Shown here: in pieces, positions 5,661 to 38,000 of the stretch
Position numbering within the stretch: position 1 is the stretch's first letter
Layout: the number at the start of each line of letters is the position of its first letter
From: Dehalococcoidia bacterium
Lineage (GTDB): Bacteria > Chloroflexota > Dehalococcoidia > Plut-88900
Direction of reading: 5' to 3'
DNA length: 64,000 nt
NCBI GenBank assembly: GCA_965207225.1
Contig: CBDBLV010000004.1
Location: 736,001-800,000, forward strand
The notes under the pieces: model-generated
What the model saw: only the letters and a program-made list of their open reading frames with translations
Told to the model about the DNA's origin: nothing
Databases searched by the model: none
Made by a program: the position numbers and the translations under genes

Positions 5661-5934
5661 AGGCGCTGGGTGCGGGACTGACCTCGCGCAGGGCCAGGTC
5701 AGTGACGTCGACGGCTACCGTGTTGGCTCAGGCGGAATCGGCGCTCATGTCAGCGCTAACTCTGGACTGACCCGGCAGCGCCTCTGATCGCGCGCCCAGC
5801 CGTATGATCGGTGGGCGTTGGGGCCGGACGAACTGCACGACCCTGCGGCAGTGGTCCAAGCCTGGGTGAGTGAACCCGACCTCCTACTCCTCTCCTGGAC
5901 GGGCGATGCGGAGTTGTGATCTCCGGGTATATCA

Positions 5935-22094: not shown

Positions 22095-22830
22095 CAGAAT
22101 CGTAGGTAGTCGCCATCCGTCTCCACATTTTCGTAGGGTAGGCCTTAGGAGCCTCCCTGCACATTCGACTGCTGGTTTTGCAGCGCGCCGTTCCACCTCT
22201 CGAGAAACTCTCGCCTCGCGCGATGACTCTCGCGTTCCCCGAAGTCCCACTCGCATCTCGTCGGCAAAGTCCAGCGCCGTCTCCCTACTCACTCCCATAC
22301 CTCTGAGAGCGTCGCGGAGTCCACCCTTTTCCACGACTCTTGCGCCTTGAGGTCAGCCTTCTCATGTAGTCATCGATGTGCCCTAGGGGAACATTCCAGT
22401 CTCGAAAGCGGAGCGTACAAGCTCCCCGGCCGAAAGCTCACTCTATACTCGGACTCTATGAACTCCCTGATCTCAGCGCCCGTCCTGAACTGTCCGCTCC
22501 CAACCTCCTCGGTCAGCTCCCTCTCCTGTTCGGCACTCAGAAAGCGGGGCTGACCAAGTCCCCGCATCCTGTGCGTCAGAACCTCCTTCACCCTCCGGCT
22601 CTGTACCAGGACACCCACCTCTGCGGCGTCCGTTAGTGGACTTCGACTACCGACGCCACCTTGCCCATTCGTCGTTCCGAACGCAGCAGCCACAGCGCGT
22701 GCAGTCGCGCGGAGCATGACGCCCTGTTCCGTTCCGACCCGGCATGCTGTCTTCAGAGCCACGGGGGTGTCCTTCGGGTCCCAGTCCACCCGAAATGGTC
22801 GACCAGTCATCTGACGCCCTCCAACTCCAT
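22095..22830 (-). mobile_element. IS630-family transposase relic
   Basis: RFLSAEQERELTEEVGSGQFRTGAEIREFIE HTH part; HEKAD..QESWK/GG junction; FADEMRVGLRG first DDE Asp; internally deleted. Confidence 0.7.
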
Positions 22831-22869
22831 GAGTTGGCATGAGCATAGACCAAATACTAGACTACTGAC

Positions 22870-23146
22870 AGACCCTTTGCGGCTGACTCACGATGAAATG
22901 GCATTAGCCGATACTGCCCAACTGGAACGCCTGTCAGTCCTTGCGAATGAGCGCATGCAAGACATCAGCATAAAGTCTGAACTGAAGAAGCAAGGACAGT
23001 TGACTATACAGCAGGCGTTCCCTCGGATGTCCAAGCCTATAATTGATAAAATAGATTGTGTGTTGGCAGAACATTATCGATTCACAGAGGATGGATTGGA
23101 CTTCGTAGTCAAATATGACATAAGATATAGGATGGACTGGCGGTGA
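22870..23146 (+). pseudogene. C-terminal fragment of a type IIG (Eco57I-like) restriction-modification enzyme
   Basis: SKPIIDKIDCVLAEHYRFTEDGLDFVVKYDIRYRMD is a typical C-terminus; the rest of the gene is missing next to the IS630 relic. Confidence 0.65.
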
Positions 23147-23944: not shown

Positions 23945-24400
23945 ATGACCTTGTCTCAAGGTGAATTTGAAGACATACTCAACGATGACACCAAAAGGAT
24001 TTCGACAGACATCGACTGGAGTGATGATCAAGACCACTCTCCTGCCCAAGAGTTTAGGGCTGAAATAGAGTCAGCGTCTGGGCGTTCCATGTTTATCCGA
24101 GGTTGGTACAGCCCGATGAGCGGCAAGTTGTCTTTTGCGATGATACTTCGGGGCGAGGGAAGAATCTACGGACTGGATCTTGGCGCGGACCACCGGAATC
24201 GCAATGGCGTTCGCGTTGGCGAAAAACACAAGAACTGTTGGCGGGAGGGCTACCGGGACAAGTATGCCTACGTCCCGCCGGACATTACGGAACCTTGGGA
24301 ACGTCCCGTTGCGGTGTGGCGTCAGTTTTGCGCTGAGGCAAATTTGACACACTCTGGTACAATGCGGGAACCAGAAGTGCAGAGGGAGGCGCTTCTATGA
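23945..24400 (+). CDS. Hypothetical protein (DUF6978-like)
   Basis: AAGGA RBS; RIYGLDLGADHRN..EKHK..AY motif; ATGA overlap with the next gene. Confidence 0.65.
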   Translation: MTLSQGEFEDILNDDTKRISTDIDWSDDQDHSPAQEFRAEIESASGRSMFIRGWYSPMSGKLSFAMILRGEGRIYGLDLGADHRNRNGVRVGEKHKNCWREGYRDKYAYVPPDITEPWERPVAVWRQFCAEANLTHSGTMREPEVQREALL

Positions 24401-25209
24401 ATGCCGATAGCCTATGCACCACCATATCCGACTCGCTGCCCGCTTTGTTTGAGTGTTCACCCGCTCCTCAAGAGGGTGCGCGCGTTCGGACTCCCATGAT
24501 GTACCCGGACGGCGGCATCGTGGACGTATTCATCCTCGCACGTGGAGACGAATACATTGTCACGGATTTCGGAGAAGCCCTAGCTTGGCTCAGATTGCAG
24601 TCAACCTCCACCCGACGCAGCCGGAGGCAGCAGATTTTGGTTGAGGATGTGTGCCAGACGTTGGGGTTGGAGTTGTTCCGCGGTCAACTCGTACTGCGCG
24701 CCATCCGTGGAGACGCGCTGGCAGAAGCCGTAATTCGTATATCGCAAGCTGCGGTGCGCGTCTCCGATCTGTGGTTCACGCTGCGCAGCCGATCCGTCCA
24801 GACCACCGCAGACGAGGTGAATGAGTGGCTCCGTGAGAATGAGATACCTTTCGACACGGGAGTTCATCATTCGGGCAGATCCAACTCCGACTGGAATGTG
24901 GATTTTCTGACTCGCACCGACGAACGAACGACTCTTATGTTCCTGCTGAGCACGGGCGCGCGCGGGTCCGCTCGCCGAATTGCCGAACACGTCCTATCCG
25001 GCTTCGTGGACCTCAGCCATCTTAGGGAAGACCAGCCCCAGCTGGAATTCGTCTCACTGTTCGACGATACCTATGATGTGTGGAGAGAAGAGGAATTCGC
25101 TCTGGTCGAGAGTCATTCGCAAGTTGCGTTGTGGTCTCGCCCTGATCAACTCAAGCTGATACTCCGCCCAGATAATCGCCAAAGTACGCCCTCTGCGTCT
25201 TTGAGGTAA
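24397..25209 (+). CDS. DUF1828-domain protein with C-terminal PD-(D/E)XK-like region
   Basis: RTPMMYPDGGIVDVF..VTDFGEAL (DUF1828); GRSNSDWNVDF..SLFDD. Confidence 0.75.
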   Translation: MNADSLCTTISDSLPALFECSPAPQEGARVRTPMMYPDGGIVDVFILARGDEYIVTDFGEALAWLRLQSTSTRRSRRQQILVEDVCQTLGLELFRGQLVLRAIRGDALAEAVIRISQAAVRVSDLWFTLRSRSVQTTADEVNEWLRENEIPFDTGVHHSGRSNSDWNVDFLTRTDERTTLMFLLSTGARGSARRIAEHVLSGFVDLSHLREDQPQLEFVSLFDDTYDVWREEEFALVESHSQVALWSRPDQLKLILRPDNRQSTPSASLR

Positions 25210-25309
25210 ATCGCCCAACGTCTACTATTGGCACACCCGTTCGATATAGATGCTGTGTTCGCATGATATCCCTGCTCACAATCGAAATACCCCTGCCGAC
25301 AGCGGACAC

Positions 25310-25716
25310 CCCCGGGAAGACCTCGAAGAGTTTCTCAAGCCGTCCGGCTCGCTGGTTCGCAGGCCTGCGACGGGACTTCTGGCCGACCTCGGTCGCAAGA
25401 CCGCACCGGACATGGGCAGAGCGGTTGCAGACACGAACTCGCAGCGTCTGCAGGAGTTCCTGACCCGCGCGGCCTGGGATTCCCTGGAGATGGACCAGTT
25501 CAGGGTCCGGTGCATGATGGATCGGGCAAGCGTGGGGGAGCGAGTGCAGATCGTAGATGACACCGGCTTTGCGAAGAAGGGCAGCCGGTCGGTCGGAGTA
25601 GCGCGCCAGTGCTACGGAACGCTGGGTCGCATGGACAACTGCTAGGTACTGGTGACGACCCGCTACGTCGACAGGGTGTATGACTGGCAGGTCACGTCGA
25701 GGGTGTATCTTCCGAT
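25310..25716 (+). mobile_element. IS701-family transposase relic truncated by the IS6-like element
   Basis: GRKTA..QRLQEFLTRAAWD..IVDDTGFAKKGSRSVGVARQCYGTLGRMDNC*VLV; ends at the left TIR of the next element. Confidence 0.8.
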
Positions 25717-25753
25717 GGTTCCGTTGAGTATTAGGTGGCGGCACATTTTAGGG

Positions 25754-26725
25754 CTACCGGGCGACTGGCGCCGTTCGCCGCCTAGACTTCCGTTTCCGCT
25801 TTGAGGCTGGAAGGAATATTACATTGCGGGGCAGCGAAGGCTTAGGCTTCGCGCTTCTCGGCCTGGATACGCGCCCCTCGCGCTTCACGACGTCCGCCCA
25901 CTCGCTGAAAGGCGCATCCACGCCGGCCACTCTGGCCGGCGGCTTGTGGCCTAAGCTCTCATGCTCGCGGAACAGGTTGTAGGTCAGCGCCCAGCCATCG
26001 AGGTAGCGCTGGCCCGTGCGCCGGTTCTCAAGTCCCCTCAACGTCTTGATGCGCTGTCGGTAAGTGCCTTGCAGTCTCTCCGACAGGTTGTTGTTGGACA
26101 CGATTGACTTCATGCCCTTGGACTTGACGTGCCTCGCCTTGGGGAAGACCCGCTCTATCGCCTTGTCATACGACCATAGGCGGTCGGTCGCAATCTGCTT
26201 TGGCGGCTCGGTCGCCGCGTCCCTCGCCTTCTCCATGACCTTGACCGCGCTGGCGATTGTCCGGGTGGGCGACAGGTGGGACGCGAGGATGTAGCGCGTG
26301 TCGGCGTCCATGACGTTCCAGTTCCACATCTTCTCGCCGCCAACGTCCACCGCCATTTCGTCGGCCACCCACTTGCCGCTTGTGTGGGCTTTGTGGTCGG
26401 CCATGGCCTTGACCGCGGCGTCGGTGTAATCCCGAACCCAAGCGTAGATCGTGGCCTTGTCCGGCTCGCTCATATCGAAGGCGCTAGCCATGTTCTCGCC
26501 GATCTGCTTGTACGACATTCCGGAGTAGAACATCCTGATCGCCGCGCCTATGCGGTCAGCGGGCACTACGCGCCCATGGAGCGCCCCTGTATCGTTGAAG
26601 CGCTTGCCGCAAGGCTTGTTCTTGCACTTGTAGAGCTGCTTGCCGTTCTGCTTGCCGTACTTGATGACGCTCTCGGATTCGCAGTAAGGACAGTTGACGT
26701 TTACGGTCGTTGTGAACTTCGCCAT
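25754..26725 (-). CDS. IS6/IS1-like DDE transposase with N-terminal Zn ribbon
   Basis: CPYC..YKCKNKPCGKRF; WVADEM..VMDADTRY..ATDRLWSY..NNLSERLQGT. Confidence 0.9.
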   Translation of the reverse strand: MAKFTTTVNVNCPYCESESVIKYGKQNGKQLYKCKNKPCGKRFNDTGALHGRVVPADRIGAAIRMFYSGMSYKQIGENMASAFDMSEPDKATIYAWVRDYTDAAVKAMADHKAHTSGKWVADEMAVDVGGEKMWNWNVMDADTRYILASHLSPTRTIASAVKVMEKARDAATEPPKQIATDRLWSYDKAIERVFPKARHVKSKGMKSIVSNNNLSERLQGTYRQRIKTLRGLENRRTGQRYLDGWALTYNLFREHESLGHKPPARVAGVDAPFSEWADVVKREGRVSRPRSAKPKPSLPRNVIFLPASKRKRKSRRRTAPVAR

Positions 26726-26746
26726 GCTATCGCCTCCAACTTCATT

Positions 26747-28134
26747 CTACCCAAACCGCCCGGTCTCCTCATACCATTTCAGATCCCACGCGGAGTCGGC
26801 CATGCGGTTTTCTTGTATGCGCCGCAACCGCAGTTCCGCCAGCGTCAACTTGTTGCCCTTAGCGCCATTGCACGGAGAACACAGCAGCACGCGGTTGCGT
26901 ATATCATCCCGACCGCCCTTCGACTTCGGGACGCGGTGGTCAACCTCGAAGTACTCCTCATGATGCGGGACCCACCCGCAACCCTGACATTTCATCCCGT
27001 CAGCCATGATCAGCCTGGATCGCAGCTCGCGCGCCGTCAACCTCGGTTGTCTGCGCCGCGGGCTTACCAGAATCAGCTCGGGCGCTGCGGGCTCCCCATC
27101 GTCCGAACGGTTCGGCGCGCTGGTCTCGACTCGCACCGCCCTATCCCATGACTGTCTATCTTCGGGTAGTCTCGCTTCGCGTTGGAGACGGTCGCGCACC
27201 ACGGCCTCCGCCTCTTGATTGATGTCAACCGCTATCCACCTTCGACCTTGCCGCTCAGCTGCGATGCTGGTCGTCGCGCAACCGGCAAAGGGGTCGAGCA
27301 CAATGTCGCCTTCGTCACTGGACGCTTTGATGATGCGCTCATATAGCGCAAGCGGCTTCTGTGTGGGATAGCCGACCTTCTCCTTAGACGTGGGGGTTTG
27401 CTGAAACGACATAATATCCCCCCAAACATCCCCTACGGCCTTGCCGGCTTTCTCCACTACATCCAAGTATCTGCGCTTGCCCCGGCCATCAAAGTACCTC
27501 CGGCCATCCCCGTCTATCTTGTTGAAGCGACCAAGATACTTCTCGCTATGTGGCTGCCTAGGGCGATTCCATGCGAAAGAAGACGACTTGCTGTAATAGA
27601 GTATCGTATCGTGTCCGCGAATCCAGTTGCGCGCCTGCGTCTTAAAACCCGATAGCACGGCAATATCCCAAATGATTTCACGCCTGAACCGCTCGCGTCC
27701 GAACACAGCGTCAAGCATTGCCTTGACCCACGCGCCCGCCGTGTGGTCTATGTGCAGGTACAGACTCCCCGTTGATTTGAGTATGCGGTGCATCTCCAAG
27801 ACGCGAACGCCAAGCCAGCATAGATACGCGCCCATGTCTTCCCCCCCCCCCCCGCGTTCGCGGCCCTTATGACCGCATAGAGGTTCGGCTGGTCTTGGCG
27901 TATGCTATCTACCCATTCGGATTGGACGTCGCCCCAAGTCCACACGTCTTTGTAGGTGATTGCCTTGCCCTCGGCGTCCAAGCCTGCGGCGACGATGCCT
28001 TCGAACGCCTTCACGCCCTTGTTGAACGGCGGATCGGTCGCTATCAGGTCAATGCTCTCGGAATCGATGCCGCGCAACACGGGGAGGTTGTCGGCTACGA
28101 ACAGCGTGCGGTTGAATTCGCTGGCGTTCGTCAT
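26747..28134 (-). CDS. N6/N4 DNA methyltransferase (beta class) fused to a C-terminal HNH endonuclease; frameshifted at a G13 tract
   Basis: DLIATDPPFN (motif IV), YPTQKP, VLDPFAGCATT (motif I), CQGC..EVDHRVPKSKGG..NRVLLCSPCN (HNH). The two ORFs join at C13 27841-27853; G11 or G14 restores the frame. Confidence 0.85.
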
Positions 28135-28141
28135 TTGAGGG

Positions 28142-28402
28142 CTACCTCCCTGGTTCTGTCTCCCGGCGCTTCTCCACCACGTGCTCGACACCTTCGATCA
28201 CTTTTCCCAACATCCCTCTGGCCATCGTCCACCAGACGCGCCCGAGGCCGGGGGCATCGAAGTCCTCGGGCGATCCGTCCATGATGGAAGCCGCATCTCG
28301 CAGCAGCGCAAGAACCTTTTCGGGCCGATCCCCAAAGAACCCTTCCGCCGCTGTTCGGTCTTGTGCATCCCTCAGTCGTTGCGCAAAGTTGTCGTGTGCC
28401 AT
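28142..28402 (-). CDS. Small hypothetical protein (86 aa)
   Basis: GAGAGGAG RBS before ATG 28402; ends 7 nt upstream of the MTase start. Confidence 0.65.
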   Translation of the reverse strand: MAHDNFAQRLRDAQDRTAAEGFFGDRPEKVLALLRDAASIMDGSPEDFDAPGLGRVWWTMARGMLGKVIEGVEHVVEKRRETEPGR

Positions 28403-28418
28403 TGCTGCTCCTCTCAAT

Positions 28419-28445
28419 CCCCGCCGCCTCAAAGACGGCGGGGGC
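28419..28445. terminator. GC-rich hairpin between passenger genes
   Basis: CCCCGCCG-cctcaaaga-CGGCGGGG. Confidence 0.4.
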
Positions 28446-28457
28446 GCTAATAAGTGG

Positions 28458-28703
28458 CTATCGCACTACCTTCATGCGATGTTCCCTAACTGGCCTAGGG
28501 CGGCGCTCCAATCGCTTGTTCATGCGACGCTCCCAAGCCAATGCGTTCTTGCGAGTTACCGGCGGACCCTCGATGCGCATCTTGCCCGGCCTGCCGGCTC
28601 GCTCATGCTCGCCAGCTCTACGCTTCGGGTTGTTCGTGATTCCAAAATAGAAAATCCGATCCTTCACGCGCAGAGTGTATTTGTGCGTGTCTCGCTTAGC
28701 CAT
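28458..28703 (-). CDS. Minimal GIY-YIG-like nuclease (81 aa)
   Basis: HKYTL..FYFGITNNPKRRAGEH..ALAWERR; AAAGGAG RBS. Confidence 0.65.
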   Translation of the reverse strand: MAKRDTHKYTLRVKDRIFYFGITNNPKRRAGEHERAGRPGKMRIEGPPVTRKNALAWERRMNKRLERRPRPVREHRMKVVR

Positions 28704-28777
28704 AGCGACTCTCCTTTCGGTAGAGTCGCCAGAGACGAGTAACGGTCGAACCAACACGGTCGAGCCGCCCGTTGTGC

Positions 28778-28900
28778 TTGACACCCCAGAAGCCGCCAGA
28801 TAACCTAGCGGTGTTCGTCTTCTGTTGGGTGTCCTCGCCTCTGGCGCGGACTAAAAGTGAAACGCCCCGTCTGGTTAGCTTCCAAGCGGGGCGTTTTTGA
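28778..28900 (+). ncRNA. Candidate ~85-nt antisense RNA (promoter plus intrinsic terminator)
   Basis: TTGACA (28778) -17 nt- TAACCT (28801), then hairpin AAACGCCCCG..CGGGGCGTTTTT (28860-28898); no ORF fits within it. Confidence 0.45.
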
Positions 28901-29030
28901 TTTAATGCTGTTGGCCGTCTATACTGACGGCGTCTGGCGCCCGCATTGCGCTGGATACGAGGGTCTGGACAGTCTCGGGTTCAGGCCCTCACTTTTGTTC
29001 CCGCTCTCCCTTCATCGAAGCGGTGAGATT

Positions 29031-29059
29031 ACAATATCAGCACCGCCCAAAACTGTCAA
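29031..29059 (-). promoter_or_regulatory. Inward sigma70-like promoter abutting the right TIR
   Basis: Minus strand TTGACA (29059-29054) -17 nt- TATTGT (29036-29031). Confidence 0.55.
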
Positions 29060-29189
29060 CACCTAATACCCAACGGAACCGGTCAGAGAGAGGCGCGGCG
29101 GAGCAAGGCATCCCTGGTCGCCACGGGGCTGTGGCTGCCCTTTTGGATCTACGATTACGCTCCGTCCGCCGGATGGTCCCGGCGCTATT

Positions 29190-29515
29190 GCGGACCAGAG
29201 GGGTCGCAGCCGGGTCATCCCTAGTCCGTAAAAGGACGCGGCCGTCGTTCTCCACGTCGATGTCCAGGTTGCAACTGTCCATGAGAGCCATGCCCAGCAG
29301 TGGCGTGGCGTCTGCTTCGTCCGCCGACACATGCTTGGACTAGTTGTCCCGGAGAGCGGTGACGCCATACACATCGAAGTTGTCCTCGCTGCCTTTTGCC
29401 GATTCTGCCTGGATGCTACCGAGGTAGGCCAGTTCCAACTCCTCGACAAAGGACGAGAGTAGGGTCAGGAAGCCATTGAGGCCTGTTTCCACCACGGCTT
29501 CGATGTCCCGGTTGC
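29190..29515 (-). pseudogene. Clan AA (retropepsin-like) aspartic protease relic
   Basis: IEAVVETGLNGFLTL..FDVY..*..TPLLGMALM..DGRVLL; catalytic DTG degenerate, internal stop. Confidence 0.6.
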
Positions 29516-29672
29516 CCTAGAAGGTTACAGAAGAAGGGATATTAGGGCGGCATAGCGCGCGCTTCGGTCGCACAGGAGGGTCCATTCCGGCGATTTTCGG
29601 GCCGATACGGTCTCATCTGCAGTCCTGAGAGCCCCGACCGGAGTCTGAGTGGCACACCTCGACCACGGAGCG

Positions 29673-30761
29673 TTAGCTGAAGATGGGCGCTTTGGTCTCC
29701 CGCTCAGCGCTCAGCCTCGACATCCTCACCAGGTTGTACGCCGTAGCCACCAACTCCGCGCACAGTCCGGTCCGCTACAATCCAACGTACCTGCTCCGAC
29801 GGAACCCTCCCACTGTCTTCATCCACCCGAAGATAGACTCCACCCGCTTTCGGACCTTCTGACTTGACCTGTACGCCTCTTGGCGCGTGGTTCGTCCGTC
29901 TATCGCGGACCACCTCCTCTTCTGGGAAATATGCGGAGTGATGTTGATCTCTCTGCGCTCGGCCACGAAGTCCTTCACGTCATAGCCCCTGTCCGTTTCC
30001 ACGCTCAGCCGACGACTGCCGGGTATTGACATCAGCATGTCCAGCGCGGCGTGCCTCTCAGCCATGCCGTTGGCCTCGGTCAGCCGAAAGTCGCTGACCA
30101 GCCCATGTCTGTTGTCCATAAGAGCATGGGCCATGAACACCAGCTTCGCCTCCTCGCCCACACCCTTCCTCATCAGTCTCGCATCGGGATCTGTCACGCT
30201 CCGGTGGCTGGAGTTGCTCAGCTTCTCGCCCCGAAAATCTCCGCTCGCCCCTCTCCATCGCCCCCGGAGTCGTCGTCATCGCGTCTTCTGAAGCTTCTGA
30301 TGGAGGCTGCGGCCTCGATGAACGTACCGTCCACGCTGAAATGCTCATCCGACATCAGTCCACGACGGTCCGCCTTGTGCGCCACCTCCTCGAGCAGCTT
30401 CCTTCCCACCTTGTAATCGAGCAGTCTTCTCATGTTCTTGGTGAACACGGTCGCGTCGAAGCTCGGCTCCATCAGATCCATGTCGAGGAACCAGCGATGG
30501 AGCAAGTTGTAGTCGAGCTCCTGGCAGAACGCTCTTTCACCCCTGATCGAGTACAGCGTGAGCAGCAGCAGAGACCTCAGCAGACGCTCGGGAGGGACCG
30601 CCTCCGATACTGGAGTACATTCGCTCCCACTCGTCTGACATGCGGTCGAGGGCGTCGTCTGTGACACGATTGATGATCCTGAGAGGATGGACCGGAGGGA
30701 CTCGCTCGTCGAGGTTGACGAAGGCGAGCATGGTGGACTGTGGATTGCGCCGGCCTCTCAT
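29673..30761 (-). mobile_element. IS5-family transposase pseudogene
   Basis: VPPVHPLR..PPERLLRSLLL..YNLLHRWF..HFSVDGTFIEA..TDPDARL..RKRVESIFGWMKT..AYNLVRM; two frameshifts and one stop. Confidence 0.85.
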
Positions 30762-30914: not shown

Positions 30915-33900
30915 TCACCCCTTGTACTCCAATCTATATGTCGCAGGATATAAAATCAGTCTTTTTTGTTTCCCCATTTCCACCAACAGGCTGGCACGAA
31001 TCGAGATCGGAGCACCATTCGCATCTATCAATACTAACGAATACAACTCTGGAGTTTGTAGACAGAGCTCCCAGATGTCCGCACCCAAATGTAATGGTTC
31101 TTGCTGGATACAATGTTCTTTGGGCCAGTAATACTGCAAGATGTCCCCTTGGGCGGATCTGAGTTCCCAAGGGAAAGCATTCCCTGAAGTTTTCCCCAAT
31201 GATCTCCCATCCGCATGACCATATTTGCCGGTTCCGTTCGACGCGAATCCCTTCGCTTGCGCGAAGCGTTCAATAAGACTCTGCCGAGGGGGGCTGGCAG
31301 ATCGCCGTGACACGGGAACTTGTGGTTCATTGGCGCCGTTGTCTTCGTCAGCTAGTGGCGCGGATTCACCTACTCGCATATCATCTAAAGCCAGACCATC
31401 TCGTGGTAGGCCAGCAACCGCGCCCTGTTCTTCTCCAGTATCAGGCTGCACCTTCTGGGTATTCGAGCGGTCTAGTTCCTCTTCATCTACCGGCGGCGCA
31501 AGTTTGAAGTTGTCTTCTAGATACTCGTGAACGAAGTCCGTGGACCTGTCGTAGCAGAGCTTGATGGCTTCGGTGATCGCCTGCAGATTGAAAGCCTTAG
31601 CAATCTCTTGAGGTACTAATCTGGCCATCTTCGCGGCAGAACTCTCTTGCACATAGAGACGGTTGTCACGCCACAGTACATCAATCGAACGTGGCGTGCC
31701 GACAGGGGTTCCGTCAATATATGGCTCAGATTTCAGCCCCCGGGCAACTTGCCACCTAGTCTGGGACAGCCGGTGAGCTTGTTCACGAACGCGCTCCATT
31801 TGATTGGGGTCGTCCAAAATAATCCGTTGCAGCCCCGCGCCAAGCGCGATGAGCCAATCCCTTCCCTGGGGATTTGGAAGCCCCGATTGTCCCTGAAATC
31901 GTTCCTCGATTGCTCCGGCTAGTGTTGGGAGGGTCGAGAATGGGTGGCTCTGACATATCTCAGAAGAAAGCGACTGGAAGTCTGCAGTCTTGCCCTTGAC
32001 TCCCGGGAATAGGTGGCTCCACGACGAGAGCGACTGCATTGTAAGAGAGTAGCTGAGACTTTCAACAGACACCCAGTTTCCCTCGAGGTTCAGCCAATGG
32101 GCAGTTTCACTCCAAATGCGGCCAGGATAAACTGGCATTACACGGCGGATGCGTCTGACTTGAGTAGCACTCAGTTTCCCGTTGGGAGGCAGCCCCTTCA
32201 ACCATTCTATCTCCATGTCTGGGGTCGGACGTTCCGGCACTCCTATCTTTCGCCACAACGATAGATCCCGCAATGAAGGATGGATTAGAGCGACTCCTGG
32301 CACACCCTCGCCATCAGAACTCAAGAAGACCTCATTCGAAGTCGCCCATTCATCCTGGTCGGTGAGAATCAATGGGTTATTGGCCAATGAGTTCTTGATC
32401 TCTTGGACCTCTGAGGTGGAACATCGGTCGAATAGCTGGTCGAGGGAATGGCACCACTTCTGTACTTCAGGAAGTAGAGGGGGATTGACACCAGCTAGTG
32501 CACGCAGCCGTTCCAGAATCCGCTCCGGTCCTGTCGGGGTGTCGCGGACCCCCAGCAATTTCAACAAGGGCCTCGTCGCCTCCGTATCCAAGTCTGCTCT
32601 AATGAAAGGTTCAATATCTCTAAGAGGTTCCGTCTCAGGAGTGCGCAGGAAAATTTCCGCCGGTTGGCGAGCTTGTCCCCAAATGTCCTCAAGGCAAGGC
32701 AGGCCCTGAAACCGAATAATCCACTCGGGTAAGAGTGGCTCCTGGGTCACATGACGAGAGTAGGTATTACCCAATTGAGACACTCGGGCTGAAGTCGCAC
32801 CTGACCAGTACGAAGGGGGTTGCTCCAGAATGTGAGTCATCAGCGTGGCCCAGAATCGGTCGTCATCCTTGGCTAAGGAATTCCAATACTTCCAGTGGAT
32901 GGCATCGAAATCCCAATCTGTGACCCTAAAGTTGTCGCGCTTGTAGTGAAAGTATGGTTTGCCATCGAATCCACGTCGCCCAAGGTCCTCTGTTAACCCG
33001 GACCGGCTCCAAACATTCCTCATGATTTGGCCTGGTGATACGAAAGTGCGGAGCCCACTGCCGGCTGACCGGACCCACTGTCGCCATTCGGCATCAGTGC
33101 ATGATTCAGAAGGTTGCATGTATGAGTCATGGAGAACGTTTTGCTTGTACCAGCTTTCATCTACAAACTGGTCTAAAGAGCCATCAGTGTCGGCAAATGT
33201 AGGGTTGCTGTCCGTTGAGCGAAGCTTAGCGTCTTGACTCACATACTTGAAGCTGCCGGGGACGTTAGCTTCGAGCTTTGCGGCTATGTGCGCAAGGCGA
33301 GCGCAGTCCTTAATCTTTAGACGACCTTGGGAAAAGAAGGCGTTGGTAACCTGGTTGAATATTTGATGTATGCTTGTAGCCTCGCCTAGTCTGAGCACCC
33401 GGAGCACACTTAAGGCCGAGCGCACCTGGTCCGCCCAAGCTTCGTCGGTGCTTGTGTCACCATTCCGCCATTTCTGTAATGTGCGGACCCAGTCTTCATC
33501 GAGCGCGAGTAGATGAGGAGCGAGAAACTCCCAGTCGGCGGGCTTTAGAGATCGACTCTCACCAAGCCGGACTACTTCACTGGCCGCGTAGAGTGATTCT
33601 TTTCCTTGGACCGGCACAATACGAATATTGCGGCGGTCGGGTCGAAAACTGGTTATTTCCACCGAGACGTAGTCCCACAAACCCAACAATCGCCGCCAGG
33701 ACGTGGGTCGGGGCAGGCGGTTGTTCTGCAGCGTCTCGATTACCTGGGGCTTGTCCAGAGTCTTGACATGATCCCGGTTGACCAATTTTGCCTGGTCTCG
33801 TTGGCTAACGTGCCGAGACAATATCGGCAGGCCGTCCGAACTGAAGCCTGTGGATACTTGGGAAGACGACCAGACGTCCAACAACGCGCCAGGCACTGCT

Positions 33901-35057
33901 AGGCAGTTGTTAGAGGGCTCAAGGGTATTGGTTTCGGTTATCAGAAACTCTGTTCCTTCAATCCTCACCTCAAAGCTCTCTTCGACGATGGAACCACAGC
34001 TCCCCTCGATAGTGCTGTCATTACGGTCAACATCTGGGAGCAGTCCGTATCCGGAACACCGTTCTTCTATTGGAAGAGACTTCCTACCTAGCCAGGCGAG
34101 CATTGCATCTGCTGCCAGTTCGCCGGTACGTTGCAACAGCCAACTATTGGTGGGAGACAATGCGGGGTCTTTGATCTTCATCCTAGCCGGGTCCTGGATG
34201 AAGGGAGCGTTGCAGGCAAACGGGAGTTGAGTCACCACCCCCGTGGGAAGGACAACAAAAAGTCGTCCTTCCATGCCCAGAACGATTTCGACTCTGCACG
34301 GAGGAAAAGTCGTGCTATCGTCTGTGGTCATGCGCTCATCTTTGATCTCATTCAGGGCGTCCTCGGGAAATTCTTCCTCAAGCGAGCGAACTAACAGGTA
34401 CTGATTCCCAGGTGTGTTCGACACCGACATCCACTCTGATCCCTCGACGGGGCCGTTCCCTTGCGACTCCCATCGAATTTCCCCCTCATCAAATCGGAGA
34501 CAGCGGATGCTATTGAAGAACAAGAGCGAAGCCGGGCTTTCACTCCATTCCTTGAGGTTCTTGACCAGCTCTTGTTGCACTCGTTGATTCTGGATGACCA
34601 CGCGGACTTCAGTACGGCCGTCGACCGTTCCAGAAGATTCAGTCCACACTGGCTCAGTAAACCTTTGCTTCTCAAAAGCGACTGAGAGTGTGGGAGTAAC
34701 CAGATGTACCTCGTTACCCAAGCTGAATGTGCTCTTGAAACCCACACCTCTGAATCCGATGGTATGCAAGGTACGCTTGTTGGAGAATCCAAATCTGCAC
34801 AGCGAAGCGAACTGCTCTTCGTTGAAGTCTTCCCCGTTGTGGGAAAAGATGAACTCACCATCGCTGATTTCAACGCTTGCGTCCGTTGCTCCGGCATCGT
34901 CCGCGTTCTGCAATAGCTCGGACACTACGTGGCGAGGACTTTGGACTTGGTTGAAGAGTTGCCGCCAAGGGCCGGCGAGTACGGGGTCTCTGTCAAGTTG
35001 ATCCCACAGCCTGGACGCATCACGCTGTATTCTCTTGAAGTATCCTGGTGGACGCAT
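30915..35057 (-). CDS. Large protein with N-terminal sacsin-like GHKL ATPase domain
   Basis: ELLQNADDAGAT, FSHNG, IGFRGVGFKSTF, FVVLPT..NAPF; TGATG overlap with the helicase stop codon. Confidence 0.85.
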   Translation of the reverse strand: MRPPGYFKRIQRDASRLWDQLDRDPVLAGPWRQLFNQVQSPRHVVSELLQNADDAGATDASVEISDGEFIFSHNGEDFNEEQFASLCRFGFSNKRTLHTIGFRGVGFKSTFSLGNEVHLVTPTLSVAFEKQRFTEPVWTESSGTVDGRTEVRVVIQNQRVQQELVKNLKEWSESPASLLFFNSIRCLRFDEGEIRWESQGNGPVEGSEWMSVSNTPGNQYLLVRSLEEEFPEDALNEIKDERMTTDDSTTFPPCRVEIVLGMEGRLFVVLPTGVVTQLPFACNAPFIQDPARMKIKDPALSPTNSWLLQRTGELAADAMLAWLGRKSLPIEERCSGYGLLPDVDRNDSTIEGSCGSIVEESFEVRIEGTEFLITETNTLEPSNNCLAVPGALLDVWSSSQVSTGFSSDGLPILSRHVSQRDQAKLVNRDHVKTLDKPQVIETLQNNRLPRPTSWRRLLGLWDYVSVEITSFRPDRRNIRIVPVQGKESLYAASEVVRLGESRSLKPADWEFLAPHLLALDEDWVRTLQKWRNGDTSTDEAWADQVRSALSVLRVLRLGEATSIHQIFNQVTNAFFSQGRLKIKDCARLAHIAAKLEANVPGSFKYVSQDAKLRSTDSNPTFADTDGSLDQFVDESWYKQNVLHDSYMQPSESCTDAEWRQWVRSAGSGLRTFVSPGQIMRNVWSRSGLTEDLGRRGFDGKPYFHYKRDNFRVTDWDFDAIHWKYWNSLAKDDDRFWATLMTHILEQPPSYWSGATSARVSQLGNTYSRHVTQEPLLPEWIIRFQGLPCLEDIWGQARQPAEIFLRTPETEPLRDIEPFIRADLDTEATRPLLKLLGVRDTPTGPERILERLRALAGVNPPLLPEVQKWCHSLDQLFDRCSTSEVQEIKNSLANNPLILTDQDEWATSNEVFLSSDGEGVPGVALIHPSLRDLSLWRKIGVPERPTPDMEIEWLKGLPPNGKLSATQVRRIRRVMPVYPGRIWSETAHWLNLEGNWVSVESLSYSLTMQSLSSWSHLFPGVKGKTADFQSLSSEICQSHPFSTLPTLAGAIEERFQGQSGLPNPQGRDWLIALGAGLQRIILDDPNQMERVREQAHRLSQTRWQVARGLKSEPYIDGTPVGTPRSIDVLWRDNRLYVQESSAAKMARLVPQEIAKAFNLQAITEAIKLCYDRSTDFVHEYLEDNFKLAPPVDEEELDRSNTQKVQPDTGEEQGAVAGLPRDGLALDDMRVGESAPLADEDNGANEPQVPVSRRSASPPRQSLIERFAQAKGFASNGTGKYGHADGRSLGKTSGNAFPWELRSAQGDILQYYWPKEHCIQQEPLHLGADIWELCLQTPELYSLVLIDANGAPISIRASLLVEMGKQKRLILYPATYRLEYKG

Positions 35058-38000
35058 CACGTCGGTTCCTCAGACCGGGCTAAGAGGCAGGCAAAGTTAT
35101 AGTTGACGCTGGTTACACCGAAGTCCGGCTCGCTGTTGAACGGCTCTCGCAGGTATCGGGTTCGGTGCTGGCCGTCAGGCAGGAATTCCACCATGGCCAG
35201 AATGAAATCTTCAGGCTTGTTCAAAGAGTAGAGAATCTCATTCCGCGTCACGGTAAGTGTATGCGCTCCGGCGGCTCGGCCTTTTACTTCGATGAACCGG
35301 AGCCTGCCTTCCCCTGGGACTCTGCTTTCAATATCGTATCCACGCTTCTCCGTTTCGTAGTCTACCGGCTCGAATCCAAGGCCTCTCTCAACTTCCATCA
35401 CAATCTTTCTGGCCCTAGCTGCTACCGCTTGTCGGTCCATCGCTCCCGTATCCGTGGACGCCGGTTTCCCAGCCATGTTGGAAAGTAAGCCCATCGGTAT
35501 GACTAGGACACTGCCAAGTATCACGGGCGGTAGAGGAGATAGCTGTCTTTCCAGACGCAACTCCTCAATGCGCTTCTGCATACGCTCCTGCAGCTCAAGC
35601 GAGCGTTTGCGGGCTTCGTCCGAGTTTAGCCTGGCATTGACCTCGCCGGCCTGTTCCTGGATCTTCAACTCGTCGGCGCGGTGGCCCCAATAGTTGATTT
35701 CTTTGGTTAGGCGCTCCTTGACGGCTGCCTCGGTCTTGTCGATGTGATCCAGTCTCTGGTCGCGGACTTCCTTCAAGTGTCCCGGCACAACGTAAGCGAT
35801 AGCGTAATTCTTGGCTGTGTCCTCCAAGTCCCCGGTTAGCCAGGCACATTCCGGTCTGGCGAGAATAGCCTCGACTTCAGGCTCATCCTCCGCTAAGGGA
35901 CGGTAATCAAGGTAAGGAGCATAGTGAGGATGTCTGGCACTGCCTTCAGAATCTAGTTCCACGTACAGCATGCGCTTGGAGATTATTCGGCGTTCGCCGG
36001 ACCTGTTCGTGGTAGCGTCCTGGATGGCGTGATCCAAGTAGAAGAGCACTCTTGGTTCCAGTCCCTGGTCGTTTTCGTCCACCAGGACTGCCCCCCGGCG
36101 CAACAAGTCTCGATTCCGTTCCAGTAAGAGGTCTGCTGTTTCATCGAGCAAAGGGTGGCCCGGACAAACGAACGCAGCTAATGGCTGGTCTTGGGGAGCC
36201 TTCAATGCTTTCTCGAAGACAATGCGCTCGTAGCGAGGAAGCACAGTTCTGTTCCGGTTGCGGATGGCTGCTGGCGTCTGGGCGACCCTGTACCGCCGAG
36301 GTTCACGTTCCCTGAGGGTGCCGCCCAGGTGCTGGAATGCCTCCAGGAAGAAGGACTCGATGTAATGGGGCTGTAACCGGCGAGCCTCGGCTCGTTCCAT
36401 TTGCTCGCGTACCCGGTGGACCCGGCTGGTATCCATTGCGTCATGCACCAGCGCCTTCTCTTCCCAAAGGTCCTTCAAGAAATCATGGTCGAACGCATTG
36501 TCGATTACTTGGGTAAGCTGCCCCCGCACTTCCGGCCGCTCCCCATACCTGATAGCCGCTATGAGCAGATCTCTCAGAGGCTTGCCCTCGAAATGGACCT
36601 TGCCAAGAACATCGAATACTTTGCCGCCCAGCGCATTGCGGGCTTCCTCAAGTTTCTCTAGTAGGCGCTGGTATACTGCCCCTTCGCGAGTTTCCTGCGC
36701 AACCAGATTCCAGAGACGGCAAACTTCGGTCTGACCTATACGGTGGATTCGTCCAAATCGCTGTTCGATTCTGTTTGGATTCCATGGCAAGTCATAGTTG
36801 ACCATGAGATGGGCTCGCTGCAGGTTGATTCCTTCCCCGGCGGCATCGGTGGCAAGCAATACCTGGACTTCCGGATCTAGGCTGAATGACTCTTGGGCCT
36901 TGGCGCGGTCTTCCCGTCTCATGCTGCCGTGAATACAAACTATCGCATCGCTTTGTCCTAACAGGTCGGCGATCCGGCCTTCCAGATATCTGAGCGTATC
37001 GCGGTGCTCAGTGAATATCACCAGCTTTTCGTTGGACATGGTGCGGTTGGCAAATAAGTTAGCCAACTCCTGCCATTTCTTGTCTCCTCCGCTTTGACGA
37101 ACCTCTAGTGCCAAAGCCTCCAATCGTCTCAACGTGGTAATCTCCGCCTTGAGTTCGGCGATAGTGCTGGCTGCGGTAGCCCGGTCCAGTAACTCTCCTT
37201 CAATGTCGTCAACTTCATCGTCAGGGGCGTCTTCAAGGTCTTCGATGTCCTCGTCTTCTATGACGGACGCTGATTTGTTGAGCGCACTCTCTACATCGCC
37301 ATCGCGCTGCAAGGCTTCAAGCTCTCGCATTGTGTTCTCTAGCCTCTCACGCCGACGCCGCAAAGACTGATATATGGCCTCCGGCGAAGAGGCTAAACGG
37401 CGTTGGAGGATGGTAAGCGCGAAACCCACGTTTCCGGCGCGTTTGTTATTTTGCAGGGACGCGGCCCGGTTGAACTCTTCACTTACATACTTGGTCACGT
37501 CGTCGTAGAGATTCTTTTCTCCGTCCGACAGCCGGTATGGCACGGTTTCTGCGATACGTTCCGGCAACAACGGAGTGTTGTCGAACTTGACCAGCTCCTC
37601 TTTCGTCGCACGGCGCATGAGGTCCGATACCTCTGTTGTATGGACGCCGTCCCGGAACCGTCCCTCAAAGCGATCGCTATTGAGCAGCGCCATGAATAGC
37701 TGAAAATCCGTCTCCTTTCCATTGTGTGGCGTGGCCGTCATCAGAAGGAAATGGCGTGTCAGGTTGGACAGGAAGCGCCCTAGCCGATAGCGTTTGGTGT
37801 AGCTAATCTCACCTCCGAAAAAGGTGGCTGACATTTTGTGGGCCTCATCACAGACAATCAAGTCCCACTGGCAGTCAGGGGCGCTCAGTTTGCCTTGGAC
37901 GTTGTCATCGCGGGCCAGCTTGTCCAGTCGACCTATCGCAAGATCGGTTTCCAGGAACCAGTTGCCTGTTCGCGCTGCGTCCAGCTTGTCATTGGTAAGG

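Follow-up and report, generated by a model that had tools for sequence, protein, structure and literature searches.

The 64,000-nucleotide stretch of a Dehalococcoidia genome analysed here (assembly GCA_965207225.1, contig CBDBLV010000004.1, positions 736,001 to 800,000, hereafter called the window) contains a unit of 3364 bp, from position 25717 to 29080, that is very probably a transporter insertion sequence (tIS) of the IS6 family. It appears to belong to a zinc-ribbon DDE clade of Dehalococcoidia and other Chloroflexota, the members of which hold passenger genes, often defence-like, between their ends. Four genes, all on the minus strand, lie within the unit: a mini GIY-YIG-like gene, an open reading frame of 86 residues, a fusion of a DNA methyltransferase with an HNH nuclease and, last, the transposase gene. 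IS6 and IS26 elements are textbook insertion sequences without cargo of their own, which can move other genes only when two copies act as a pair. The evidence supports that the unit is an IS6-family tIS from a clade where cargo, often in the form of defence genes, is the rule.

Its movement can be pictured by analogy with IS26. The transposase would recognise both of the ends that start with GGTTCCGTTG, and the whole interval would move as one unit, by way of a replicative cointegrate and a subsequent homologous resolution that leave a target duplication of 8 bp. The four genes would be read as an operon from a promoter beside the cargo-side end. The methyltransferase-HNH gene of the window copy would have been switched off by the loss of one base in a run of G, and a neighbouring deletion, or recombination between copies, would have cost this copy its duplication and removed the rest of an IS701 relic next to it.

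Ends, transposase and family placement

An initial annotation of the window had described terminal inverted repeats of 21 bp enclosing 3364 bp, and both repeats were located where it had put them. The one at the transposase-gene end (25717-25737) reads GGTTCCGTTGAGTATTAGGTG, and its likeness to the opposite end runs on to 25748, while the one at the cargo end (29060-29080) reads GGTTCCGTTGGGTATTAGGTG in reverse complement. They are identical at 20 of 21 positions, and a repeat search could extend the pair to 32 nt at 81%. By our own estimate, the chance of such a 20/21 inverted pair within 5 kb is about 0.005 in 64 kb. The full 21-mer, with at most three mismatches, is found at just these two sites in the 4.03-Mb genome of five contigs (the reversed control gave none), and the element in the window holds no third copy of the 14-nt repeat core at up to three mismatches. 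A direct repeat of 15 nt (25744-25758 and 28132-28146, 14/15 identical) was considered as a scar of cargo capture and set aside as compatible with chance, about 0.8 being expected by our own estimate.

The gene next to the first repeat (25754-26725, minus strand) has an intact frame for a transposase of 323 residues with a zinc ribbon and a DDE core. It matches DDE_Tnp_IS240 (PF13610) with 60.8 bits against a cut-off of 27, and the IS6 family of NCBIfam (NF033587) with 125 bits, where the cut-off is likewise 125; its N-terminus also matches the IS1/IS1595 zinc domain of NCBIfam with 44 bits. The zinc ribbon is formed by C12, C15, C34 and C39, and the catalytic triad, which we assigned by pattern, by D122, D181 and E216, with 35 residues from D181 to E216 and an arginine (R223) at E+7. 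In an alignment with 12 members of the clade, the window protein has the four cysteines, the triad and R223; both aspartates are invariant in all 13 sequences, and glutamate occupies the column of E216 in 10 of the 12 relatives. Judged from its sequence, the transposase gene looks functional.

Both ends begin with GGTTCCGTTG, and nine of their first ten bases agree with the consensus of the IS26 group, GGTTCTGTTGCAAA, including G1, G2 and G7, with differences at positions 11-14. That consensus was derived by Harmer and Hall for short elements of the IS26 type, in which G1, G2 and G7 are nearly universal (PMC6807381). The initial annotation regarded the element as IS6-like, and on the evidence of Pfam, NCBIfam and the terminal-repeat consensus we would likewise place it in the IS6 family in the ISfinder sense, as an outlying clade.

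With the IS26/IS257 group it shares the IS240 Pfam domain in its DDE core, ends of the type GGTTC.GTTG and 8-bp duplications, the latter seen here in the relatives. The members of that group are however only 0.8-0.9 kb long, have one gene and lack the zinc ribbon, and take on cargo only via pseudo-compound pairs or translocatable units; the window transposase is less than 30% identical to the IS6 transposases found on plasmids. In a plasmid collection, the closest proteins that bear a name are IS6/ISCpe7 transposases, at about 28% identity and E-values from 1e-22 to 1e-26. These best named matches represent the zinc-finger IS6 elements of Clostridia (ISCpe7, clade VII or clade h), which have a similar N-terminal zinc-finger extension and a transposase of about 340 residues, but are 1.2-1.35 kb long without cargo, and in the account of them only one long element starts with GG (PMC6807381). 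IS6 elements are in general compact, 0.8-0.9 kb or 1.2-1.7 kb for the zinc-finger forms, with the transposase gene alone. Since the element in the window has 3364 bp and four genes, unlike these, we consider it to be a tIS; three of its genes are not the transposase, and the cargo varies among relatives with similar transposases.

A metagenome scan with the transposase gave five loci, one of them a weak match at 29% and four that match its N-terminal 109 residues only. These four contigs (L036-L039) are 67% identical to the zinc ribbon and helix-turn-helix part, and could stem from truncated genes or from a small protein in its own right. A distant IS6-like transposase pseudogene, 35% identical and with two in-frame TAG codons, is present in the same genome as the window (C5:1466104-1466949).

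Relatives and their changing cargo

Evidence that the whole interval is one unit comes from related elements. A scan of one genome per species resulted in 22 loci, all from Dehalococcoidia or Chloroflexota, with transposases 48-69% identical to that of the window, and in these we looked for matches to the 9-nt core GGTTCCGTT, with at most one mismatch, that flank the transposase gene. The initial annotation had set out beforehand what would speak against it, namely repeats that do not recur in homologous elements, or a closer end that leaves the passengers outside. The core does recur as paired ends around the transposase in 16 of the 22 loci, and these pairs enclose 2148-9841 bp, with no closer end that would leave the passengers out. 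Perfect 8-bp direct repeats, for which the chance of one match is 1 in 65,536 per locus, flank ten of the 16 (L005, L006, L009, L010, L016, L017, L020, L021, L022 and L024). The other six (L011-L015 and L018) have paired ends without a duplication, just as the window copy. Ends could not be delimited in the remaining six loci (L007, L008, L019, L023, L025 and L026), of which two are one-ended and two have broken transposase genes.

When the whole class was searched, 28 of 301 Dehalococcoidia genomes had the transposase at E <=1e-40. Twenty of these sites were fetched, one of which was that of L020, leaving 19 new loci with 33-45% identity, and here the ends were sought by de novo detection of inverted repeats. 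Nine of the 19 were delimited, with lengths of 1807-3375 bp; five have 8-bp duplications (one of these has ends that read GGTTCTGTTGCA), one a 9-bp duplication, two imperfect repeats and one none. Taken together, none of the 25 delimited relatives is under 1.8 kb and none is a bare insertion sequence, the length of a bare zinc-finger IS6 being about 1.2-1.3 kb in a published table (PMC6807381).

Three of the relatives have features of their own. The unit of L006 (2372-12212) is 9.8 kb long with a perfect 8-bp duplication, and has one left-type end and four right-type ends (at 5860, 7425, 8459 and 12212); within it are genes for an IS701 transposase, a methylase-Mrr protein and a PaREP1-like protein, along with two distinct copies of the transposase, of which the second is frameshifted. 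The unit looks like an array formed by successive insertions beside an existing end. The transposases of L009 (5980-7512, 510 residues) and L011 (6001-7572, 523 residues) have C-terminal extensions of about 200 residues, which can be aligned with each other and have no domain assigned.

The cargo was surveyed by searching open reading frames of at least 70 residues from the 16 close elements with Pfam and PADLOC, and with the window included the survey covers 17 elements. Defence-like cargo is present in 11 of them. A methyltransferase-HNH fusion is found in five, intact with 504 residues in L005, as two open reading frames in L014, and frameshifted in L020, L022 and the window, and a methyltransferase-Mrr fusion in three (L006, L009 and L015). 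One element, L017, encodes a type IIG-like protein of 828 residues with HsdR-N and N6-methylase domains, accompanied by a separate HNH gene and a weak AbiEi-like gene. Another, L013, has a methyl-directed restriction nuclease (156 bits), and L024 has RmrA, similar to the RosmerTA antitoxin (343 bits), together with a remnant of a methylase-HNH gene; PDC-S13 (347 bits) occurs in L022, already counted for its fusion. The cargo of L016 and L021 is DUF805, and that of L010, L011, L012 and L018 consists of proteins without assignment. Among the 17, the GIY-YIG-like gene and the 86-residue reading frame are confined to the window element. In the nine distant elements, the extra open reading frames have no Pfam family, except for one sub-threshold zinc-ribbon match in L075, and they are mutually unrelated save within one genus.

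A comparison of cargo between copies, which the initial annotation had suggested, thus shows that it differs among related elements, and it does not follow the transposase. The possibility that methylase and transposase have descended together was rejected, as no positive correlation exists between their identities (Spearman -0.34; seven elements, 21 pairs). The transposases of L014 and L015 are 77% identical, whereas their methylases are 38% identical and have different nuclease domains. Another case is the pair L015 (5931-9350) and L016 (5931-8402), from one genome, which have 96.5% identity in a stretch of 1296 bp that comprises the end and the whole transposase gene. Their homology stops where that gene ends, and what follows is unrelated, a methylase-Mrr gene in L015 and DUF805 in L016. 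Closer homologues of the methylase-HNH protein of the window are found away from such transposases, with 59-70% identity in genome G102 and 68-73% in a protein collection; in G102 the homologue lies at 0.81 Mb and the transposase matches at 2.29 and 2.32 Mb. Cargo that is variable, that is swapped and that has its closer homologues outside the elements is best understood as passenger DNA that turns over.

Among the nearest known systems is ISDsp3 from Dehalococcoides sp. BAV1, which ISfinder-based reviews give as the sole IS6 element that holds a passenger gene (PMC7986276, PMC6807381). Compared by description, it is similar in its host class, its transposase of about 320 residues, its 8-bp duplication and the extra coding DNA within its ends. 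It differs in being 1456 bp long, with one hypothetical passenger and reportedly no intact zinc finger, while the window element has 3364 bp, three passengers and an intact four-cysteine motif. Furuta et al. described in 2010 restriction-modification genes that lie, without a transposase, in units bounded by inverted repeats and flanked by 8-bp duplications (PMC2853133). In that screen, linked mobility genes had been taken out before the units were found (PMC2853133), whereas the window element has a transposase of its own, and one of an identified family. Tn7-like transposons also act as vehicles of defence and carry diverse systems (Benler et al. 2021, PMC8649781), but they are large and need several transposition proteins, in comparison to one transposase and 2-6 kb here. 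In the literature searched, which left most subscription journals and ISfinder outside, we found no account of IS6-type elements from Dehalococcoidia whose cargo consists of defence or restriction-modification genes.

What emerges is a whole IS6-like lineage with cargo, as all 25 delimited relatives hold 0.8-5 kb of it or more, in the closer subset mostly compact genes for defence or restriction-modification. On this view, elements of 2-6 kb with a single transposase would be a route for defence genes into and between defence islands in a class of bacteria that is poorly studied and largely uncultured. They would also be natural and very small units of a transposase plus one defence gene, and would bring forward an uncharacterised class of methylase-HNH and methylase-Mrr enzymes that is open to experiment.

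The window copy and competing explanations

The main cargo gene of the window element (26747-28135, minus strand) encodes, in two frames (28135-27748 and 27835-26747), a predicted beta-class N6/N4 DNA methyltransferase (PF01555, 124 bits) with a C-terminal HNH nuclease (PF01844, 51.5 bits). PADLOC recognises it with 159.6 bits as MTase_II; only MTase_II models match, and REase_MTase_IIG does not. To our knowledge, the type IIG enzymes that have been described use other classes of methylase and nuclease. The initial annotation had four co-oriented genes ending with the transposase, and while order and strand are as it described, the reading frame of the methyltransferase-HNH gene is interrupted. 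The break lies where 13 C follow one another (27841-27853; G on the coding strand), and the frame is regained if one base is added to this run or two are removed. Homologues read ...AANTAGGEDMGAF... across this point, and intact ones, in L005 and P0002/P0003, are single chains of 449-504 residues. At the level of domains it is reasonable to see in the fusion a candidate restriction-modification enzyme of one polypeptide (type IIC/IIG-like), out of frame in the window copy, and the fusion would most likely be a self-contained enzyme for modification and cleavage.

It could be argued that the frameshift is an error of sequencing or assembly, and that the gene is in reality intact. Undercounting by one base is common in runs of 13-14 identical bases, and one extra base does restore a frame that matches the homologues residue for residue. 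On the other hand, the run is contained in a 1321-bp contig (26710-28030) that has zero differences to the window in each of three sequencing runs. These runs are from one sample and possibly the assembly's own data, their platform is unrecorded, and they were compared as contigs, which drop rare variants, and not as reads. We find an error rather improbable, and think that the frameshift is likely to be real.

If it is, the G-tract might have a function. In a bolder version of our explanation, the relatives form a modular clade that swaps cassettes, in which a module of about 1.3 kb, made up of the end and the transposase gene, exchanges defence cassettes at a fixed junction by the transposase gene, and thereby represents the smallest autonomous defence shuttles known, and the tract of 13 or 14 G is a reversible switch for the enzyme that also tunes the transposase by polarity. 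This is a speculative idea, and one that we consider rather improbable.

The history of the copy can be read to some extent from its insertion site. On the left it adjoins a relic of an IS701-family (DDE_5) transposase gene (25250-25716, plus strand; PF13546, 70.4 bits) that aligns to residues 89-175 of an intact relative of about 500 residues, and the alignment ends at the left repeat of the element (base 25717). No continuation of it was found to the right of the element when intact IS701 relatives were compared with the window by tblastn; the IS701 protein of L006 is too distant and gave no match in the window. The element does cut off the IS701 relic, as had been proposed. The flanks differ (left CTTCCGAT, right GGTCAGAG), and a target duplication is therefore missing, which the initial annotation had also pointed out. 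A relic that is cut in the middle of the gene, in combination with the missing duplication, speaks for a deletion or recombination after the insertion. Both adjacent deletion and recombination between copies have been described for IS6 elements (PMC7986276). The absence of the duplication is consistent with an adjacent deletion by intramolecular transposition, or with recombination between copies, and is shared with six of the 16 close relatives.

Further to the left there are a C-terminal fragment of a type IIG restriction-modification protein (22661-23146, 58.9 bits) and a PDC-M24A/PDC-M24B pair (23945-25209; 200 and 285 bits), and to the right IS5-like pieces (29775-30667) and a TmtA-like (Tiamat) ATPase of 1381 residues (30915-35060, 150 bits). 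The window copy is situated in a defence island with debris of insertion sequences.

The element was said to be single-copy, which is true of the assembled genome but does not seem to be so for the sample. In contigs of the three runs, pieces identical to the element have a depth of 69-99, compared to 28-42 for the flanks, or about two to three times as much. Two contigs per run also depart from the element exactly after 29080 and go on into other sequence. The higher depth and the other junctions suggest that there are further copies in the community. In runs X2-X4 contigs are also joined from 26739 to 28457 and from 25796 to 28519, with shorter sides of 30 and 53 nt and intervening letters that are unknown; these joints hint at variants of the element without the methylase block or without the transposase gene, and we mention them as leads only. 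A further run, X1, had only short and mostly diverged pieces of the element.

These observations also speak against regarding the unit as a dead relic, that is, a fragment of a defence island that was once mobile and now decays, with the methylase-HNH gene as a pseudogene and the frameshift as a sign of decay. Such an explanation would fit well with the missing duplication and the truncated IS701 gene beside it, with a frameshift that is present in all contigs seen, and with a single genomic copy among the remains of IS701 and IS5-like elements. The transposase frame is however intact with all the residues that are invariant in the clade, the ends still agree at 20 of 21 positions, and recent movement is indicated by the raised depth of identical sequence and by the further junctions, two or more, that the sample has on the right-hand side. 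We therefore hold the relic to be unlikely, and a tIS that has been mobile in the recent past to be the better description.

It has also to be considered if the nucleases and the methylase serve the element itself, by homing into empty sites that are unmethylated or by addiction of the host. GIY-YIG and HNH are classic folds of homing nucleases. Fusions of a methylase with a nuclease, HNH or Mrr, are present in eight of the 17 elements, and apart from the fusion L020 and L005 have no sizeable cargo. But six of the 17 have neither nuclease nor methylase, and three of these (L010, L016 and L021) have clean 8-bp duplications all the same; cargo is swapped between nearly identical transposase modules, and at none of the 11 loci inspected does a GIY-YIG-like gene of a relative lie beside the transposase or the ends. 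This makes a role of that kind very improbable, and passenger cargo the more rational explanation. Least probable of all, and hardly credible to us, is that the repeat at 29060-29080 is a solo end of another copy or has arisen by chance, in which case the true element would be a transposase gene whose inner end has been lost, and the cargo trapped chromosomal DNA, since in spite of the missing duplication, the tendency of IS6 elements to form arrays and pseudo-compound structures (PMC7986276) and the several same-direction ends in the 9.8-kb array of L006, there are 21 nt only from the methylase stop to the transposase ATG with nothing like a repeat inside, homologous elements share the layout with duplications around the whole unit, and the cargo contigs are as deep as those of the transposase.

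There are several points that weigh against a tIS as we have described it. The 8-bp duplication is missing at the window copy, and its own insertion as a unit is thus not directly seen; the element is a single copy in the assembled genome, and no empty site was found for it, or successfully sought. The pairs of inverted repeats in the relatives were matched by us from script output, with no independent program, and bare elements with diverged ends could hide among the loci that were not delimited, 6 of the 22 close ones and 10 of the 19 distant ones. The NCBIfam score of the transposase sits precisely on the cut-off, and Harmer and Hall doubt that the long zinc-finger transposases are members of the IS6/IS26 family (PMC6807381). 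The copies in the community are seen in contigs and not in reads, from runs that may be the source of the assembly. The promoter and the operon stand at the level of consensus sequences, and no characterised methylase-HNH fusion enzyme was found in the literature searched, with most subscription journals outside it.

Leader and small genes

The four genes are separated by 55, 6 and 21 nt, and every gene has a Shine-Dalgarno-like sequence. From these ribosome-binding sites and the ATG codons, the likely starts are at 28703 for the GIY-YIG-like gene, 28402 for the small reading frame and 28135 for the methyltransferase. A putative sigma-70 promoter that faces inwards adjoins the terminal repeat (29031-29059, minus strand), with TTGACA, a spacer of 17 nt and a TG-extended TATTGT, and agrees with the consensus at 10 of 12 positions; the scan of 3.6 kb gave two such sites where 0.9 would be expected. 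With gaps this short, ribosome-binding sites for each gene and the promoter-like site in front, the four genes would seem to be read as one operon.

Between the promoter-like site and the first gene there is a leader of about 320 nt, which contains a GC-rich hairpin with runs of T and A on each side (28860-28896). The leader shows no conservation at DNA level with the other elements, and an Rfam search of 25000-30000 gave nothing at E <=1. By eye, a promoter-like TTGACA...TAACCT can also be seen on the plus strand within 28776-28900, about 60-80 nt before the hairpin and T-run (28860-28900). It was not listed by the promoter scan, and nothing was found there by Rfam, but it could yield a short RNA antisense to the leader of the operon.

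The orphan reading frame of 86 residues (28142-28402, minus strand) has the ribosome-binding site GAGAGGAG, and its stop is 6 nt ahead of the ATG of the methyltransferase. It has no match in Pfam, NCBIfam or PADLOC, a database search returns only itself, and its best score in an atlas search was 0.76, beneath the meaningful level.

The first gene of the element (28458-28703, minus strand, with AAGGAG upstream as ribosome-binding site) encodes a mini GIY-YIG-like protein of 81 residues. It scores 18.7 bits with PF01541, which is under the cut-off of 22.6, and 14 homologues have Y10, G22, T24, R29, R30, E33, W58 and E59 as invariant residues. An AlphaFold2 model of it has a predicted local distance difference test score (pLDDT) of 80.8, and the best six Foldseek matches of the model are all GIY-YIG domains of UvrC, with probabilities of 0.96-0.98 and template modelling (TM) scores of 0.55-0.60, yet with E-values of about 0.15-0.3. 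The assignment as GIY-YIG, from motif and model, is in our view partly secured. The protein and its three closest relatives (63-65 residues) are without the C-terminal segment that in longer homologues ends in a conserved asparagine, a segment that is either absent or replaced in the window protein, and it may be a minimal or inactive form.

Genes of this type are scattered in the class, in 47 of 401 genomes at E <=0.01 and in a dozen at E <1e-8. That those of the relatives would be parts of similar elements was considered and rejected, as none of 11 loci inspected has a transposase match or the repeat core within about 1.5 kb; in L064 a lone match to the core is unpaired. A second mini GIY-YIG-like gene, 55% identical, is found in the same genome and on the same contig as the element (C4:11654-11854), 750 kb away. 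Genome G109 has three copies that score equally, which suggests that these genes are carried on some other repeat.

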